21,258 nt of DNA from a virus (IMGVR_UViG_2778261303_000012:1-21258); one strand, 5' to 3'. Positions 2,868 to 12,795 are shown, counted from the stretch's first letter. Numbers and translations: made by a program. The notes: generated by a model from the sequence alone, not told the origin.

Positions 2868-3617
2868 ATGCTCATTCCAACATCTCTATCAAAACAACCA
2901 GTAATCGAAGCTGCTTTCGAAATGCGTTTTTCTAAAGAAACACAAATATCGGAAATAGTTCCAGGGTTTCTTTTTCACGCTCTAGGTTGTACAAAACCAG
3001 TAATTAGTTTACCACCCAGTCAAATACCTAAAAATGTTCGTGAGGGAGATGAACAATTACATTACGCAGTTGTCAGTCGCCTCGAAATCGAAGGGTACTA
3101 TATTGGACTAAGTGACCATGGTGTTGTTGTATCCACCAGCACCAAATATCAAGGGTGGAGTCATTTTAGAGAAAAAATCATTCATGTATTAAATGAGCTT
3201 AACAAATTAAATTTAAATGACAACATCATCCGCTACTCATTAAAGTATGTAGATTTTTTCCCAAAAGAAGACGATTCTAATTTATTTGATAAGCTAAACG
3301 TCAGCTTAAATATGGCTGGCGAGTCTATGTCTAATTATCCGATCAATATCAGAATCGATAAAAATGAAGGCGCATTTCTAAATATAATTCAAATATTATC
3401 TCATGCTTTAGTCATGTCAGATAATGGAGAATTTAATAAAAAAGGACTAATCCTAGACATAGACAGTATTAGGCAAATCACTAATACTGATGAAATAGAT
3501 AAGTTTAAAAACGAACCCAAAAAAATTCTTGATGATCTTCACTCCTGTAATAAATTAGCTTTCTTTAGTTGCCTTAAAGAGTCAACAATTCAAGAACTAG
3601 AACCATCCTACAAATAG
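2868..3617 (+). CDS. hypothetical protein, cassette gene A (249 aa)
   Basis: Long ORF, first gene of a three-gene AT-rich operon. No catalytic motif recognised. An unverified recollection of TIGR04255-like proteins is too weak to use as a call. RBS is weak and an alternative downstream start is possible. Confidence 0.6.
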   Translation: MLIPTSLSKQPVIEAAFEMRFSKETQISEIVPGFLFHALGCTKPVISLPPSQIPKNVREGDEQLHYAVVSRLEIEGYYIGLSDHGVVVSTSTKYQGWSHFREKIIHVLNELNKLNLNDNIIRYSLKYVDFFPKEDDSNLFDKLNVSLNMAGESMSNYPINIRIDKNEGAFLNIIQILSHALVMSDNGEFNKKGLILDIDSIRQITNTDEIDKFKNEPKKILDDLHSCNKLAFFSCLKESTIQELEPSYK

Positions 3618-3632
3618 AAATGGTGGTATGAT

Positions 3633-3977
3633 ATGTATCCGTCTCATCATGTTTATCGAGCTCAACTTCAAGTATTAACTTTGGTTTTATATGGTCTGCA
3701 TATAACAGCATTAACAGACATTGCCCAAAATCAACAGCATGGTCCTCAACAAAGTTTAATCGTCAAAAATCACGCTTTGGAGTATAAGTCTTCAACTACC
3801 GATTCAGTTCATTCCATCACACAAACATATAAAGCAGGGAGCACAATCTCAGTTGATCAAAGACTTGCAGTCTCGATGACAAACTTTTATGAAAAATTAT
3901 CAACAAACCAGGTGTCTTTAGGCAGTGAAATAAATAAAGTCGTTCATGCTTCACTGTGGGATTTATACTTGGATTAA
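3633..3977 (+). CDS. hypothetical protein, cassette gene B (114 aa)
   Basis: ORF 15 nt after gene A stop, same strand and AT-rich composition; a GGTGG-like Shine-Dalgarno precedes the ATG. No family recognised. Confidence 0.5.
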   Translation: MYPSHHVYRAQLQVLTLVLYGLHITALTDIAQNQQHGPQQSLIVKNHALEYKSSTTDSVHSITQTYKAGSTISVDQRLAVSMTNFYEKLSTNQVSLGSEINKVVHASLWDLYLD

Positions 3978-3980
3978 GTG

Positions 3981-4595
3981 ATGAGTAATAACATTTTTGA
4001 TATCGAGAAATTCAAAGATCAAATTCCATATTATTTAACAGCTCCTCAAAAAGAAGGGCTAATAAATGCACTTAGAGATTTCCCTGAAAACACTAACTAC
4101 TACCTTACCAATTATCATGATGATCTGAAAAATGCTGCACTTCAGGGAGATATATTTAAGGAGCTTACAGTATATTCAATTAAAGGGACTAAAAAAACAC
4201 GAGGAATTATATTAAGCAACAGTTGCGATATAGATACAAGTAATAATCGTGATGTGCCAATGCGTGCAGTCTTTGCTCCGTTAGTAAGTTTATCTAAGTT
4301 CGAAGCTATTCTTCTCTCCAACGGAGTTTCTAAGACTTCAATAGATAGCAAAATTGATGCTATAAGGAAGCAGTTAATTACTAATATTTTTTATCTTCCT
4401 GAATCAGACAACTTAGAAGAATGCATCGTTTTTCTTGATGATGTATACCAATTACCAACGGAAGAATTACAAAAACTCTTGAATGATAAATGCAAAGCCA
4501 TAACTTTAAGTCAAGTTGGTTTCTACATTTTACTATTCAAAATATCTATTCACTTTTGTAGATTCCATGAAAACATACAACGATTCGATCATTAA
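3981..4595 (+). CDS. hypothetical protein, cassette gene C (204 aa)
   Basis: ATG at 3981 directly follows gene B stop (TAA 3975..3977; a GTG at 3978 is an alternative start), suggesting translational coupling. Followed immediately by a terminator hairpin. No family recognised. Confidence 0.55.
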   Translation: MSNNIFDIEKFKDQIPYYLTAPQKEGLINALRDFPENTNYYLTNYHDDLKNAALQGDIFKELTVYSIKGTKKTRGIILSNSCDIDTSNNRDVPMRAVFAPLVSLSKFEAILLSNGVSKTSIDSKIDAIRKQLITNIFYLPESDNLEECIVFLDDVYQLPTEELQKLLNDKCKAITLSQVGFYILLFKISIHFCRFHENIQRFDH

Positions 4596-8662: not shown

Positions 8663-9481
8663 TCACCCCCTGAATCCTGCCGGGATCTGGCTGTAGTCCA
8701 CGTTGTCGTAACTGGCTTTGAAGTACGTGTCCTCGCGTCTGGCTGCAGATACCGCAGGAACTTCCCAGGATTCTTCGAAATGACGATCTGGACCAAAGAA
8801 CGTGACAGCCTGTTTCACAAATTGTGTGCCGCTATTGCCCATCGCAGATACCCAGCCCGCGTAGCGTTTCACACCTTCCAGCATGGTTTCGGGGTTTACC
8901 CCCTCGTTCAAACGGGCTTTCCAGACTTTGAAGGCTGCAGATTTTGAATTGCCACCAGCACGTTTGGGATATGCCAGCCATGCCTGCTCAAACTCCGGAG
9001 AGTATTCCGGTCGGTTTGAACGAACTAGCACGGACTCATCAACTGATGCACCAACAGCTATTGGTTCATTGACTGGTTCTTTGACTGGTTCAAAAGAGTG
9101 ACTGGTTCTGGGTGAATCTCCTGCACTACCCCCTGGTGCAACTCCTGCACTACCTGGTGAATTTGCTGCACCAGATAGTGAATTATTTGCACTACCCCCT
9201 AGTGAATCTCCTGCACCATCCAGATGAAGGAGATAGATATTACTTGAGTTACCTTTTTCACCTTTCCGGGTGACTTTTTTTACCAGCCCGGACTCACAGA
9301 GGGCCGCAATATGATTCATCACAGAACGTTTGCTAATCTCGCACTGATCAGCGATATGCTGATAGCTGGGCCAGCACTCGCCCTGATCGCTGGCATTATC
9401 AGCCAGCTTAATCAGAACCAGTTTTCGCAATGGATTTCCCACTCGAATTTTCATCGCTTTAACCATCAGCTCCATACTCAT
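8663..9481 (-). CDS. phage replication initiator-like protein (N-terminal wHTH, low-complexity linker, C-terminal domain)
   Basis: 272 aa, GGAGG RBS. N-terminal HTH-like region (KLVLIKLADNASDQGECWPSYQHIADQCEISKRSVMNHIAAL); central Gly/Ser/Ala-rich linker encoded by tandem DNA repeats; position between Rha and the downstream early genes is typical of a lambdoid replication module. No P/DnaC-like partner gene seen. Confidence 0.65.
   Translation of the reverse strand: MSMELMVKAMKIRVGNPLRKLVLIKLADNASDQGECWPSYQHIADQCEISKRSVMNHIAALCESGLVKKVTRKGEKGNSSNIYLLHLDGAGDSLGGSANNSLSGAANSPGSAGVAPGGSAGDSPRTSHSFEPVKEPVNEPIAVGASVDESVLVRSNRPEYSPEFEQAWLAYPKRAGGNSKSAAFKVWKARLNEGVNPETMLEGVKRYAGWVSAMGNSGTQFVKQAVTFFGPDRHFEESWEVPAVSAARREDTYFKASYDNVDYSQIPAGFRG
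9068..9225. repeat. iteron-like imperfect direct repeats inside the replication gene (candidate ori)
   Basis: GACTGGTTC repeated three times (about 9071, 9083, 9100), then four copies of (a/g)GTGAAT(c/t)T..(c/t)TGCAC (about 9110, 9165, 9177, 9201), plus repeated CTCCTGCACTACC; an AT-richer stretch follows at 9225..9285. Confidence 0.5.
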
Positions 9482-9702
9482 GCAGCACCTCCGAGATGCT
9501 TCATGTTTTTTCCGGAGCGAAAGGCTATAAGCGGCATACTGACGCGGTAACTACGGCCCAGCGGTTCACAAATCACCTTCTGACATTCACGGTCAACCAG
9601 GCTAACACGTAGAACATGCCCTTCAGGTGTGGTGTACCACTGACCCGGACGAGGACAACGGAAAGTCTGATTGGTAAACCGTTTGAAAATATTCCGGATC
9701 AT
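9478..9702 (-). CDS. hypothetical 74-aa protein, translationally coupled between rha and the replication gene
   Basis: ATGA overlaps at both ends (Rha stop / its ATG at 9699..9702; its stop / replication-gene ATG at 9478..9481). Contains a CxxxP...C pattern; no family recognised. Confidence 0.5.
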   Translation of the reverse strand: MIRNIFKRFTNQTFRCPRPGQWYTTPEGHVLRVSLVDRECQKVICEPLGRSYRVSMPLIAFRSGKNMKHLGGAA

Positions 9703-10256
9703 TTGCGCCCCCTTACCTCTGAAGGGTTCAGCAACAAATTTATGAGGCAGGCCAGTGCCGAAGCATCATTAATATAGTCATACAAGCTAACAGCCAGCGG
9801 AGATTCGGCTTTTGCCAACATAGGATAAAGCTGCTGCAGCCAGACCTGATGAATTGATGAAATGTAGGAATAGAGAACGCTGGCGTTATGTGCAACGTCG
9901 CTCAGTACAGAGGGCTTTGAAAGCTGTTTCTCCATCTGGTTAAAGGCATTGATGTATGCCTCTTTGAACTGGGCAGCACGTTTACCCGTGAAACCCATAG
10001 CAAGAAACGCAAAGCCGTCGCGAGTGATTTGATAGCAAGGAAGCTTGCGTGTACCACCGTTCGGTTGATTTACCGAAATAGATGTCTCCGCAAAATTGCG
10101 GGCACAAAACTCAGGGGAACAATCCAGAGTACGGATCTTTTTCAGCACATCGTCGTGACGCTTGGAGAAGAAGTTTGCAACAGCTAAAGAAGTGGTAACG
10201 GCTTGGCCGTTGTCAATGGTGATTTCAGGTTGAGTAAGGGCTGGGATCGTAGCCAT
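9699..10256 (-). CDS. Rha-family phage regulatory protein
   Basis: Start set at ATG 10256 (GGAGG RBS 8 nt upstream), giving 185 aa: MATIPALTQPEITIDNGQAVTTSLAVANFFSKRHDDVLKKIRTL...GTRKLPCYQITRDGFAFLAMGFTGKRAAQFKEAYINAF is the Phage_pRha signature. The 499-aa ORF in the track is a read-through artefact. Confidence 0.8.
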   Translation of the reverse strand: MATIPALTQPEITIDNGQAVTTSLAVANFFSKRHDDVLKKIRTLDCSPEFCARNFAETSISVNQPNGGTRKLPCYQITRDGFAFLAMGFTGKRAAQFKEAYINAFNQMEKQLSKPSVLSDVAHNASVLYSYISSIHQVWLQQLYPMLAKAESPLAVSLYDYINDASALACLINLLLNPSEVRGRK

Positions 10257-10586
10257 GATGGCAGCCTCCGTTGACAGTGAAAAACTTCCACCACCGGAAA
10301 CGCCAATTTCACTGGTGGTGAACTGGACGGGGTTGGCGTAACCGGCGTCAACGGAGACCGGCGCACCTTTCGGTGCCCCCGTCCAGCCCACCATAATCTG
10401 GATGTGAACAAATGCGGACGATAAAAAAGACGCTGGCGCGTCATACATCGCCGTTGACAATTTCAGGACGCCAATCCCGGCACCTGATTTTTCAGGTGCT
10501 GAAGCAGTGTATACTCGAAATAAATCATGATCAATAATGATGCGAGGATGGGGGTTAACCGTTATCTCAAAATAAGGAGATACAAC

Positions 10587-10928
10587 GTGAGATACCAACT
10601 TTTGGCTAACAGCAGCAGAGGTGATGGTTTTTACGATGTAACCATCAGCGATAATAGCGGCAACCTCGAAATAGAATGCACTTGTATGGCTGGTGAAATG
10701 GGTACAATGTGTAAGCACCGTATTGCCGTTATTACAGGAAAATATGGAAATATCATAGATATTGATGATCCTGAAAACGCCGATGCAAAACTGGCAACCG
10801 ACCTGATTGCTAAATATGGAATTACAGAGCAATACCTTGCTCTTGCTAAAGAACTCGAAGACCTGAAAAAGAGGTTCAAGGTTGAAGAAAAGGCTATCAA
10901 ACTGAGAATTAATGCCTTGGCAGGGTAA
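10587..10928 (+). CDS. small SWIM-type zinc-finger protein, antisense moron within the early operon
   Basis: Start at GTG 10587 preceded by AAGGAG with 7-nt spacing; 113 aa. Contains CTCMAGEMGTMCKHRIAV, i.e. CxC-x9-CKHxxAV, the canonical SWIM zinc-finger pattern. Lower GC than flanking genes and opposite orientation. Confidence 0.6.
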   Translation: MRYQLLANSSRGDGFYDVTISDNSGNLEIECTCMAGEMGTMCKHRIAVITGKYGNIIDIDDPENADAKLATDLIAKYGITEQYLALAKELEDLKKRFKVEEKAIKLRINALAG

Positions 10929-10965
10929 GCTCTCAGTTAAAATTTGTTTCATTTGGTTAGCTCTC

Positions 10966-11198
10966 ATCCTTCCCCTTACGGCAGAAGAGTTCAGTAAAGA
11001 ATTGATTAAACCAGCAAGCGCCGCTGCGTCATTGATGCGGTCATAAAGGCAATTCAGGCCCACAGTCAGGTAAAATTCTCTGTGGTTAATTACAGCCAGG
11101 TGATTTAGTAATCTGCATTCATGCCGTAACAACAGATGTTCAGAGACGCAGACCACCAGCTGTTGCGACAAACGGTTATTTGCCGTTAAACTGTTCAT
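10966..11198 (-). other. short ORF / relic resembling the 3' end of rha, translationally coupled to the CII-like gene
   Basis: ATG at 11198 overlaps the CII-like stop (ATGA). Encoded ...LYDRINDAAALAGLINSLLNSSAVRGR parallels the Rha C-terminus ...LYDYINDASALACLINLLLNPSEVRGRK, and the DNA at 10967..11060 is about 70% similar to 9705..9800. The reading frame then runs open across the antisense of the SWIM gene, so its true end is unclear. Confidence 0.35.
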
Positions 11199-11752
11199 GC
11201 GTTAGTTTCTCCACAACTAGAAGCAATCGACGCCACGACGCCCGGAGCTGCACACTCGCGGGCGTTACTCTTTTCTGGAGCGCAGAAGATTTTGTAGACC
11301 AGTGCTGCATGCTCCTGGAGCTTCGAAATTGACAGATACAACTCATCATTAATTGCTGTTTGCTCGTGTAGCTCCACTACCCCATCTTCGATTGCCGAAC
11401 GAATCTGCTTTGAGTAACTCCCGATCTGTTCGATGACTTCCAGCAGGCGCTGGTTTATATCGGCGTTCTCTACTTCCTCAATTTCAGGAAGTGATACAAA
11501 CACCCCACCAGCAGACTGTGCGACAGCATCCGCAATGTGATGAGTACTAGCCGCACGCTGTAAAACCATTGCCCATCCCAACGGAAAAAACTGATCACCA
11601 TCGGCACGAAGGCGGTTGAATAAAGCGTTCTCTGTTACATCCAGCCACTCAGCAGCTTCAGCGTAACCACCTGGCAATGCCGCGATAGTTTTTCTGACAG
11701 CTTTCACGTACCAGTCAGGTTGTTTTTCCACTTTCCAGTGATGCTTACCCAC
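11195..11752 (-). CDS. CII-like / YdaT-type phage regulatory protein
   Basis: 185 aa, GTG start with AGGAGG RBS, overlapping the cro-like gene by 8 nt; position directly after cro and general resemblance to Phage_CP76/YdaT-type proteins (recollection, not verified). Confidence 0.55.
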   Translation of the reverse strand: MGKHHWKVEKQPDWYVKAVRKTIAALPGGYAEAAEWLDVTENALFNRLRADGDQFFPLGWAMVLQRAASTHHIADAVAQSAGGVFVSLPEIEEVENADINQRLLEVIEQIGSYSKQIRSAIEDGVVELHEQTAINDELYLSISKLQEHAALVYKIFCAPEKSNARECAAPGVVASIASSCGETNA

Positions 11753-12005
11753 GGCTTACCTCCTGTTCCTGTGGTTTAAACCCATTCTGGTTTTGGCTAG
11801 ATTGAAAACGTGCCGGATAAAGAATCTGCATTTCGCTGATTTCACCCTTAAAAAAATTGGCCAGACGTTCTGCAAGATCGATAGATGGAATTTGTTCCAG
11901 TCTTTCAATACGACTCAGCGTCGCTGGATTGACCTGAACGCCCGCAGCAACATGCTGCAAAGTAAATCCGTGCGCCTTACGCACATTCCGTAATGGTGAT
12001 TGCAT
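11745..12005 (-). CDS. Cro-like HTH repressor
   Basis: 86 aa, GGAGG RBS 5 nt from the ATG. HTH segment FTLQHVAAGVQVNPATLSRIERLEQIPS; divergent from the cI-like gene across an operator-rich intergenic region. Confidence 0.7.
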   Translation of the reverse strand: MQSPLRNVRKAHGFTLQHVAAGVQVNPATLSRIERLEQIPSIDLAERLANFFKGEISEMQILYPARFQSSQNQNGFKPQEQEVSRG

Positions 12006-12102: not shown

Positions 12103-12795
12103 ATGAACATAGGAAATCGAGTCAGACAACTTCGCCAGGCGAAGAACATGAAAATCGCCGATCTCGCTGAAGCAATAGGAGTGGATGCGGCGAATATCTC
12201 ACGCCTGGAAACAGGTAAGCAGAAACAATTCACTGAACAAGCCCTGAGTAATATTGCCAGGAGCTTAGGTGTTGATATAGCTGATCTCTTTACCTCAGAC
12301 TTCAAAAGTAATACTGTATGTAAAAACAGTATTAGTGAGGATGTTGCGCAGGTGAAGGATGTATTCCGTATTGAAATGCTGGATGTCAGTGCCAGTGCGG
12401 GAAATGGCCTTATCCAGGGCGGTGATGTCATTGATGTGATTCATGCCATTGAATACAGAACTGATAATGCTGTATCGATGTTTGCCGGACGGCCAGCCAA
12501 TCACATTAAAGTTATCAACGTTCGTGGGGACAGTATGTGTCCAACCATTGAGCCAGGAGATCTCATCTTCGTTGATGTCAGTATCAATCAGTTTGATGGA
12601 GATGGTATCTATGTATTTGGTTTTGATGATAAAATTTATGTCAAACGACTACAAATGATACCTGACAAACTACTGGTGATTTCTGATAACCAGATTTACC
12701 GTGAATGGGGAATTACCAGCGAAAATGAACACCGGTTTATGGTCTTTGGAAAGGTCTTAATCAGCCAGTCACAAACCCTTAAGCGACACAATTAA
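12103..12795 (+). CDS. CI-type prophage repressor (HTH_XRE + S24 LexA-like autopeptidase)
   Basis: 230 aa. N-terminal HTH (RVRQLRQAKNMKIADLAEAIGVDAANISRLETGKQ); C-terminal S24 fold with catalytic Ser in VRGDSMCPTIEPGD and Lys in YVKRL; candidate Ala-Gly cleavage site in SASAGNG. Confidence 0.85.
   Translation: MNIGNRVRQLRQAKNMKIADLAEAIGVDAANISRLETGKQKQFTEQALSNIARSLGVDIADLFTSDFKSNTVCKNSISEDVAQVKDVFRIEMLDVSASAGNGLIQGGDVIDVIHAIEYRTDNAVSMFAGRPANHIKVINVRGDSMCPTIEPGDLIFVDVSINQFDGDGIYVFGFDDKIYVKRLQMIPDKLLVISDNQIYREWGITSENEHRFMVFGKVLISQSQTLKRHN
12309..12334. promoter_or_regulatory. LexA-box-like palindrome inside the cI coding sequence
   Basis: TAATACTGT-ATGTAAAA-ACAGTATTA: perfect 9-bp inverted arms with CTGT-N8-ACAG geometry; the core TACTGTATGTAAAAACAGTA matches the E. 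coli SOS box consensus TACTGTATATATATACAGTA at 16 of 20 positions. Confidence 0.45.

Follow-up and report, generated by a model that had tools for sequence, protein, structure and literature searches.

A portable SWIM zinc-finger gene antisense to the early operon of a lambdoid prophage, and a complementary strand kept free of stop codons in most lineages

Two long reading frames face each other on opposite strands of the prophage locus described here, which raises the question of which of them encodes a protein and why the other is open at all. Within the window, by which we mean the whole 21,258-nucleotide stretch of viral DNA analysed (IMGVR_UViG_2778261303_000012:1-21258), a plus-strand ORF with a SWIM zinc-finger motif lies antisense to the cro-ymfL-rha operon, as an earlier note on this DNA had described. 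Across from it runs a minus-strand frame of 499 codons that PGAP annotates as a single 'Rha' protein in strain GXU-23-25-310. Positions 9600-11800 are 100% identical to the chromosome of E. coli RM8082 (NZ_CP043825.1). The prophage is lambdoid, of the e14/ymfL type, and the locus forms a mosaic junction within its early-right operon (Table 1). The ymfL TGA and the ATG that follows it share the sequence ATGA at 11198-11195 (read directly from the sequence); a GGAGG precedes the rha ATG at 10256, and the rha stop overlaps the ATG of the next gene, again as ATGA. The SWIM gene has a GC content of 0.41 compared with 0.48-0.57 in its neighbours, in agreement with the lower value remarked on previously.

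Table 1. Features of the SWIM locus and the surrounding early region; coordinates are those of the window.
Feature	Coordinates	Strand	Evidence or remarks
cI-like repressor	12103-12795		Divergent from the early-right operon
cro-like gene	11745-12005	minus	Early-right operon
ymfL, CII-like regulator	11195-11752	minus	NCBIfam YmfL, 168 bits; Pfam Phage_CP76
Uninterrupted 499-codon frame	9699-11198	minus	ymfM remnant, rha relic, SWIM complement, isrK, C4 and rha
ymfM homologue, 5' remnant	11059-11198	minus	About 46 codons; homology to SWIM-less L003
rha 3'-end relic (...LYDRINDAAALAGLINSLLNSSAVRGR)	10972-11048	minus	Fused in frame on both sides; blastn, alignment A7, phrog_821
SWIM cassette (RBS, CDS and 41 nt of 3' flank)	10569-10969 (401 nt)		74-90% identity to L005-L009 and L014-L019, in different operon contexts
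Stop-free complement (asORF)	10512-10967	minus	Codon-aligned with SWIM; AAGGGGAAGG precedes its ATG at 10967-10965
SWIM zinc-finger gene	10587-10928	plus	113 aa, GTG start; Pfam SWIM, phrog_13130, length of relatives, codon position 3
Predicted isrK promoter	10506-10534	minus	-35 TTGATC (10534-10529), 17 nt spacer, -10 TACACT (10511-10506); alignment A4
isrK small RNA	10423-10499	minus	Rfam RF01394, 72.7 bits (gathering 50), full length (model positions 1-77)
C4-type antisense RNA	10311-10398	minus	Rfam RF01695, 82.3 bits (gathering 45), full length
rha, antirepressor-like CDS	9699-10256	minus	Pfam Phage_pRha (PF09669), 97 bits; TIGR02681, 90 bits
74-aa gene (phrog_1153)		minus	Early-right operon, listed after rha
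Replication-type HTH gene, then PerC, Dam, RusA		minus	Rest of the early-right operon

Three codons could start the SWIM gene: ATG 10527, ATG 10548 (the choice made by PGAP) and GTG 10587. Most close relatives are 113 residues long (seven of 11 close clusters, with one more at 114), and AAGGAG(A) is found 7 nt upstream of the start in every lineage, in the window at 10574-10579, where it forms the ribosome-binding site that had been recognised before; we therefore take GTG 10587 to be the real start. The two upstream ATG codons were rejected, since it is the GTG that gives the 113 residues of the relatives. The predicted protein contains the motif C31-x-C33-x8-C42-x-H44 and scores 25.2 bits with Pfam SWIM (PF04434; gathering cut-off 19.6), so that the SWIM assignment of the earlier note holds, albeit with a spacing of x8 in place of the x9 given there. 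It also matches phrog_13130 over its full length (positions 1-112 of 118, E 1e-16).

Substitutions in the SWIM gene fall mostly on the third position of plus-strand codons, with counts of 9/6/45 at positions 1/2/3 between the window and relative L018, and 16/9/41 between the window and L005. The antisense translation diverges two to three times faster, with 48-74 differences over 114 positions compared with 15-45 in SWIM. Because of these two patterns, and because it belongs to a large conserved family, we conclude that SWIM is a protein-coding gene; on the evidence of these comparisons the plus-strand ORF is genuine and under selection at the protein level. The possibility had been raised that related prophages would reveal the minus-strand frame to be a single conserved protein, but it is the plus-strand protein that they conserve.

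The gene recurs as part of a short cassette. Homology among cassettes starts just 18 nt before the start codon, and the sequences further upstream differ among contexts. In L005, L006, L018 and L019 the cassette lies between DUF4222 and a replication gene, in L009 (from Serratia) between a DEAD helicase and a primase, and in L048 after cro; in L014-17 and L049/50 it again adjoins isrK-C4-rha. Its orientation is antisense to the host operon in every prophage context seen. SWIM is carried by two of 5426 complete E. coli genomes. A tblastn search of 50,697 deposited phage genomes with three family members returned no match, and a metagenome scan and scans of IMG/VR with P0009, P0010 and P0007 added no further lineages. 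Alignment of related prophages, a check proposed by the earlier note, shows that SWIM is present or absent at the same junction, with ymfM sequence occupying the position of the cassette in the relatives that lack it.

Morons are autonomous extra genes situated between conserved genes of lambdoid phages, and the SWIM gene had been regarded as one of them. It resembles morons in its presence/absence polymorphism at a conserved position, its deviant base composition and its small size. Unlike morons, which are co-oriented in the late operon, it is antisense inside the early operon, and it differs further in that no portable promoter or terminator was detected and its complement is kept translatable. 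A scan of positions 10200-11300 revealed no sigma-70-like site, and so none for SWIM, although SWIM may have a weak or non-consensus promoter; the same region contains two terminator-like sites, neither adjoining SWIM. One of these is the isrK terminator; we note that the other is at 11242-11229 on the minus strand, inside ymfL. The TATACT previously proposed as a SWIM -10 element is at 10510-10515, overlapping the -10 hexamer of the isrK promoter on the opposite strand, and most likely belongs to that promoter and not to SWIM. The genome comparisons thus support SWIM as an accessory insertion, which is the part of the moron proposal that survives; they do not show it to be a self-contained moron.

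Comparison with L003, a relative without SWIM, delimits the insertion. Homology between the two extends over 10100-10511 and 11059-11300, and the intervening 547 nt of the window (10512-11058) stand for 208 nt of ymfM sequence in L003. The L003 ORF whose start lies at this ATGA of ymfL can be aligned by eye with both ends of K-12 YmfM, and the replaced stretch is the 3' part of a ymfM homologue; about 46 ymfM codons are thus all that the window retains. By this alignment the 3' two-thirds of ymfM, including the C-terminal part that L003 and K-12 YmfM have in common, have given way to the cassette and some 80 nt from the 3' end of a foreign rha. YmfM of e14 is an SOS-inducible cell-division inhibitor, as described in a preprint (bioRxiv 10.1101/2020.11.19.390815). 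Whereas the ORF starting at the ymfL ATGA junction in SWIM-less relatives corresponds to the ymfM homologue, this prophage retains only its N-terminal codons, and because so few remain YmfM function has probably been lost here.

The SWIM gene had been thought to be bracketed by rha 3' ends. On the ymfL side this proved correct, and the relic there has 70-74% DNA identity to resident rha 3' ends (blastn) and matches the C-terminus of phrog_821 (positions 296-323, E 6.6e-7). On the other side the resident rha faces SWIM by its 5' end, with isrK and C4 in between. The relic ORF credited with an Rha-like C-terminus is a chimera, in that about 30 codons do derive from an rha 3' end but the first 46 are the 5' end of the ymfM homologue. 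Relic and cassette join between GTAAGGGG and AAGGATGAGAGC, at about 10971, and the relic thus marks a mosaic junction, as expected of the module-exchange footprint suggested earlier. A plain duplication of the resident rha end was considered as the source of the relic and rejected, the relic being closer to the rha allele of L002/L004 than to that of the window itself. L005 also keeps an in-frame rha fragment of eight codons, LAMGFTGK.

If SWIM is the protein-coding frame, the openness of its complement requires attention. Across 114 codons there are no antisense stops in eight of nine distinct prophage lineages, which span 62-100% amino acid identity and GC contents down to 0.37; one member of the clade, L051, has two. 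The other two antisense frames of SWIM contain 1-5 and 10-15 stops, and all 17 of the other family members compared have between one and seven stops in the aligned antisense frame. No aligned open frame was found in L029 and L020, which are more distant antisense-embedded relatives. Synonymous resampling with the codon usage of neighbouring genes gave a probability of zero stops of 0.024-0.095 per sequence, and 8.7% of 114-codon windows in the neighbouring genes are stop-free; the stop-free lineages share ancestry, and these statistics therefore overstate independence. Codon choice within the SWIM genes follows the same pattern. A-ending codons outnumber G-ending ones by about 3-4:1 except among TTR, CTR and TCR; in no other family does the A-ending codon read as a stop on the antisense strand. 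Counted as distinct states, the A:G-ending ratio is 0:16 in these families and 83:41 in the others (Fisher p = 1.4e-7), with the reservation that the states share ancestry and that the E. coli preference for CTG partly confounds this control.

The non-coding flanks of the cassette are open in the minus frame too, and the frame is connected to whatever genes lie next to it. In L009 the order is helicase-ATGA-asORF (170 codons)-ATGA-primase. In L005 and L018 the asORF overlaps the DUF4222 stop and ends GAT-TGA over the TTG of the replication gene, and in L048 it overlaps the cro stop. In L014, L049/50 and the window it continues in frame across isrK and C4 and then along rha as far as the stop of that gene. 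We considered and rejected the possibility that the antisense ORF encodes a second functional protein, given how much faster its translation diverges than SWIM. The third positions of SWIM diverge freely and only openness is retained, which distinguishes the locus from a true pair of antisense overlapping genes. The alignments show that the SWIM complement is kept open, but not as a conserved protein, and we infer that selection acts on translation across the cassette.

An alternative explanation is that shared ancestry and a codon preference that avoids the rare TTA, CTA and TCA left the complement stop-free as a by-product, with the overlaps being incidental. Each sequence has only about 10 leucine and 3-7 serine codons, the serines being mostly AGY; the chance of a single sequence being free of stops (0.02-0.1) is not negligible, the lineages are related, and L051 does have its two stops. 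However, the turnover of third positions between lineages has reached 35-55% with no antisense stop arising, the SWIM genes favour A-ending codons 3-4:1 outside these codon families, and each of the 17 other family members has stops. Moreover, the open non-coding flanks end exactly at the start or stop codons of neighbouring genes in four different contexts. We consider a by-product unlikely for these reasons, albeit the alternative that fares best, and continue to favour selection for translation across the cassette.

The SWIM protein belongs to a family of small proteins that comprises 232 representative clusters (50% identity; E<=1e-3), mostly of 107-125 residues; its full-length similarity, length and architecture are those of this family (phrog_13130; about 110-120 aa). 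Among 60 relatives there is no variation at C31, C33 or C42, and at least 90% have H44, which is invariant in the 47-sequence subset of alignment A3. A confident AF2 model (pLDDT 95.6) consists of a three-stranded sheet, a zinc knuckle with a helix at 43-50, a helix at 67-76 and a long helix at 79-112; the conserved ligand residues and the model together suggest that the protein binds zinc, and the long C-terminal helix may form a coiled coil. As in other SWIM domain proteins (PF04434) and in PHROG 13130, the C-x-C-xn-C-x-H motif scores above the Pfam cut-off and the phrog_13130 match is full length. The protein differs from other SWIM domain proteins in that it is a stand-alone form of 113 residues with a C-terminal helical hairpin and no SNF2, MuDR or kinase module. 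Database searches, which the earlier note had recommended, confirmed the family through Pfam and phrog_13130 but yielded no solved or characterised relative of this form. A PDB sequence search with the family profile gave only coiled-coil noise (E of at least 0.3), Foldseek against PDB had a best E of 0.58, and the matches in BFVD were other unnamed SWIM proteins only. NCBIfam had no match, and phrog_13130 carries no annotated function.

The sole functional lead comes from gene neighbourhood. In a contig scan by profile search with an alignment of the Verrucomicrobiota subgroup, whose members have 117 residues, at least 10 of 14 genomes have SWIM co-oriented with ligA and following it within a few bases, and the arrangement holds across 44-100% SWIM identity; it recurs in one zipA-ligA-SWIM contig. 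These ligA-linked relatives are only about 30% identical. In mobile elements the neighbours of SWIM include DnaB, primases, helicases and initiators. Because of this neighbourhood we favour a role in DNA replication or nick sealing, albeit tentatively and at less than even odds. Protection of the lysogen ranks second, ahead of regulation at the isrK promoter. A literature search found no precedent linking SWIM with prophages or with ligA.

The second-ranked proposal is that SWIM is a moron expressed during lysogeny, acting in superinfection exclusion, anti-phage defence or counter-defence and unrelated to replication. Its antisense orientation, low GC and patchy distribution would be in keeping with this, and one relative is near a ThsB-TIR gene. 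The sole PADLOC match, to PDC-S62, can also be cited (E 5.9e-6), although it is weak, confined to the SWIM domain, and spans 38 residues of a 566-position profile. The proposal has to contend further with the failure to find a promoter or terminator belonging to SWIM, with the fact that members of the broad family are found mainly on chromosomes, in operons with ligA, and with the empty search of deposited phage genomes. We think such a role improbable, and retain replication or nick sealing as the preferred function.

Between the cassette and rha lie two RNA genes that the earlier note did not mention; the truncation of ymfM and the minus-strand frame kept open in several independent contexts were likewise absent from it. 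In addition to its covariance score, isrK has its own promoter and an intrinsic terminator, the latter with a stem at 10442-10429 followed by a T run (terminator scan). Loci that carry SWIM and loci that lack it share the promoter hexamers and the distance between them (alignment A4), and we infer that 10506-10534 acts as the isrK promoter; SWIM is back-to-back with it. Two ATTGGCGT boxes are present, one in isrK at 10475-10468 and the other at 10307-10300, 44 nt upstream of the rha ATG, and C4 contains an unpaired ACGCCAA at 10339-10333 that is complementary to both. An orf45-like ATG at 10394-10392 is in frame with rha.

By analogy, isrK, C4 and rha make up an RNA switch of the Gifsy-1/P1 immI type that would control an antirepressor-like protein, and its architecture is that of P1 immI, the c4-icd-ant module of P1/P7. 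The window resembles the isrK-orf45-anrP module of Gifsy-1 and immI of P1/P7 in its full-length isrK and C4 matches, in the promoter and terminator of isrK, in a short ORF starting about 106 nt from the isrK 5' end, in the repeated target boxes complementary to the C4 loop, and in the Rha/antirepressor-like gene downstream. The Gifsy-1 module has been characterised experimentally (Hershko-Shalev et al. 2016, PMC4825925), and there the orf45 stop overlaps the anrP start as AUGA (PMC4825925). The window differs from Gifsy-1 in that its orf45-like ATG (10394) continues in frame into rha without a stop, that the RNA region is entirely inside one open frame starting at the ymfL stop, and that a SWIM gene stands back-to-back with the isrK promoter.

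This last arrangement invites the suggestion that SWIM regulates the isrK-C4-rha switch or the early operon, either by binding DNA or RNA at the divergent isrK promoter or through convergent transcription that interferes with the expression of cro and ymfL. Three diverged lineages (the window, L014-17 and L049/50) have SWIM back-to-back with this promoter, and since no terminator follows SWIM, its transcript would continue through ymfL and then cro as antisense RNA. However, the cassette also occurs in L005, L009, L018 and L048, none of which has isrK-C4-rha next to it, and chromosomal members of the family are without such neighbours. A regulatory role is accordingly the least favoured of the three functions, and we regard it as quite improbable.

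We therefore return to selection for translation across the cassette. Untranslated RNA is a normal substrate for Rho, and translational coupling occurs in operons. A possible mechanism is that ribosomes loading on the early mRNA at the ymfL/ymfM ATGA junction would continue through the cassette without interruption. Their passage would spare rha and the replication genes further downstream from Rho-type polarity and keep translational coupling intact. Where isrK follows, the same ribosomes would melt the isrK terminator and the C4 fold on RNA derived from the operon. Transcripts from the isrK promoter would still make the small RNAs; they would escape such melting because the upstream start is absent from them. 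As in known cases of coupling and Rho-dependent polarity, ATGA/TTGA-type overlaps chain the ORFs, but here the coupled 'gene' appears to be only a frame kept open opposite another gene and free of amino acid constraint. To the explanation as a whole, namely a mosaic SWIM cassette encoding a ligase- or replication-linked protein, its complement kept open for translation, we assign a probability of roughly 0.6. We note that an N-type antiterminator, if this phage has one, would lessen the need for protection from polarity. In-frame reading into rha would yield a 499-aa fusion protein, a consequence that counts against the mechanism.

The principle may extend further, in that antisense-embedded genes in coupled phage operons could be purged of TTA, CTA and TCA, their complement wired to the neighbouring genes and kept for translatability only; for this generalisation we consider the odds to be even. 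If true, the giant 'Rha' ORFs would be accounted for as well, and so would the Phage_ASH 'domain' over the isrK and C4 RNAs. The SWIM gene and the RNAs are individually already known or annotated; what is new is that an antisense-embedded gene has a complement that is stop-free and coupled to its neighbours, and that the SWIM family is linked to ligA. A full-text literature search found no description of an antisense stop-free frame coupled against polarity. The locus offers a testable case of selection on the translatability of a frame and not on its product, and it bears on how mosaic phage genomes tolerate inserts in coupled operons and on how long antisense ORFs should be read. A widespread family of small zinc-finger proteins is, in addition, associated with both NAD-dependent DNA ligase and mobile-element replication modules, which offers a first experimental handle on it.

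There remains the 499-codon frame itself. Pfam Phage_ASH (PF10554) matches it with 74 bits, and the match coincides with isrK and C4. The 252 nt of these two RNAs show no codon periodicity in the rha frame in four comparisons (22/27/33, 36/34/41, 25/23/33 and 27/23/29 substitutions at positions 1/2/3), whereas the rha CDS at 9699-10256 shows it clearly (45/32/84 and 72/51/113) and is the only stretch that qualifies as Rha. Substitution patterns by codon position gave no sign of protein-type constraint in the minus frame upstream of 10256. Because periodicity is lacking in the one stretch and present in the other, the Phage_ASH match is best read as a translated RNA region, and not as an N-terminal Rha domain constrained in its amino acids. 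That the frame is one real 'Rha family' protein, with SWIM a chance ORF on its complement, is hardly credible, even though PGAP annotates it exactly so in GXU-23-25-310, Phage_ASH and Phage_pRha both match the same frame and it is open in all relatives, given the position-3 substitutions on the plus strand and the faster divergence of the minus translation, the conservation of SWIM at 113 residues in unrelated contexts and in non-phage genomes, and the presence upstream of rha of isrK and C4 without the codon periodicity of rha. On these substitution patterns, the 499-aa 'Rha' of GXU-23-25-310 does not represent a single protein. Annotation of this prophage region, which is very common in E. 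coli, would be corrected accordingly, since 'Rha' proteins of 386-499 aa with Phage_ASH run through two small-RNA genes; in the window, the long 'Rha' reading also crosses the complement of a real gene.

The Pfam family Phage_ASH (PF10554) matches, at 74 bits, the amino-acid sequence obtained when the isrK and C4 RNA genes are conceptually translated, and the same stretch was also considered in the related loci L003, L004, L014, L049 and L050. The frame over this stretch is open in all six lineages examined despite the absence of codon periodicity, and because that periodicity is absent the Phage_ASH family may have been built largely on translated RNA.

In Gifsy-1 the stop codon of orf45 overlaps the start of anrP, whereas in the window the orf45-like start codon is in frame with rha and the 46 codons between them contain no stop, an arrangement from which an Rha protein with a 46-aa N-terminal extension could be produced. 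The isrK-C4-rha unit is tandemly duplicated in E. coli SCU-172 (locus L004) and in the sequence hits H27-H30. At the start of the second copy, the opening codons of the 74-aa gene that lies downstream are joined to it in frame. The region has thus yielded a further in-frame recombinant.

Coordinates of the features discussed (in the window unless another sequence is named).
Feature	Sequence	Coordinates	Strand
Three ORFs amid minus-strand phage genes	window	2868-4595	plus
Replication-type HTH gene	window	8663-9481	
rha ATG	window	10256	
isrK/C4 stretch matching Phage_ASH	window	10257-10510	minus
orf45-like ATG	window	10392-10394	
Direct repeat bracketing the SWIM 3' flank	window	10926-10968	
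Tandem isrK-C4-rha duplication	L004	3100-5123	
Unannotated SWIM-cassette match (H63)	NZ_CP010122.1	1704085-1704348	

An imperfect direct repeat (TAAGCTCTCA and TTAGCTCTCA) lies on either side of the SWIM 3' flank, and the ATG of the complementary minus-strand frame sits in the second copy, TTAGCTCTCA. The SWIM-cassette match in E. coli strain C5 is 66% identical and perhaps represents a copy that has diverged or decayed.

In at least 10 of 14 Verrucomicrobiota genomes a small SWIM gene also lies immediately downstream of ligA (NAD-dependent DNA ligase) and in the same orientation, and one zipA-ligA contig shares this arrangement. The proteins encoded at these ligA-linked loci (L010, L011, L027 and L034-L046 were examined) are ∼30% identical to the SWIM protein of the window. 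In P0012, a 4832-aa protein from the representative library, stretches that match SWIM-protein residues 29-79 are repeated 29 times in tandem.

In the window, the replication-type HTH gene forms an intact ORF of 272 codons, whereas the RefSeq record of RM8082 flags it as 'frameshifted' (818 nt), and the two therefore differ here by one base. At least two of the three plus-strand ORFs have very low GC contents (0.32-0.33), and the three could constitute a separate accessory or defence island.
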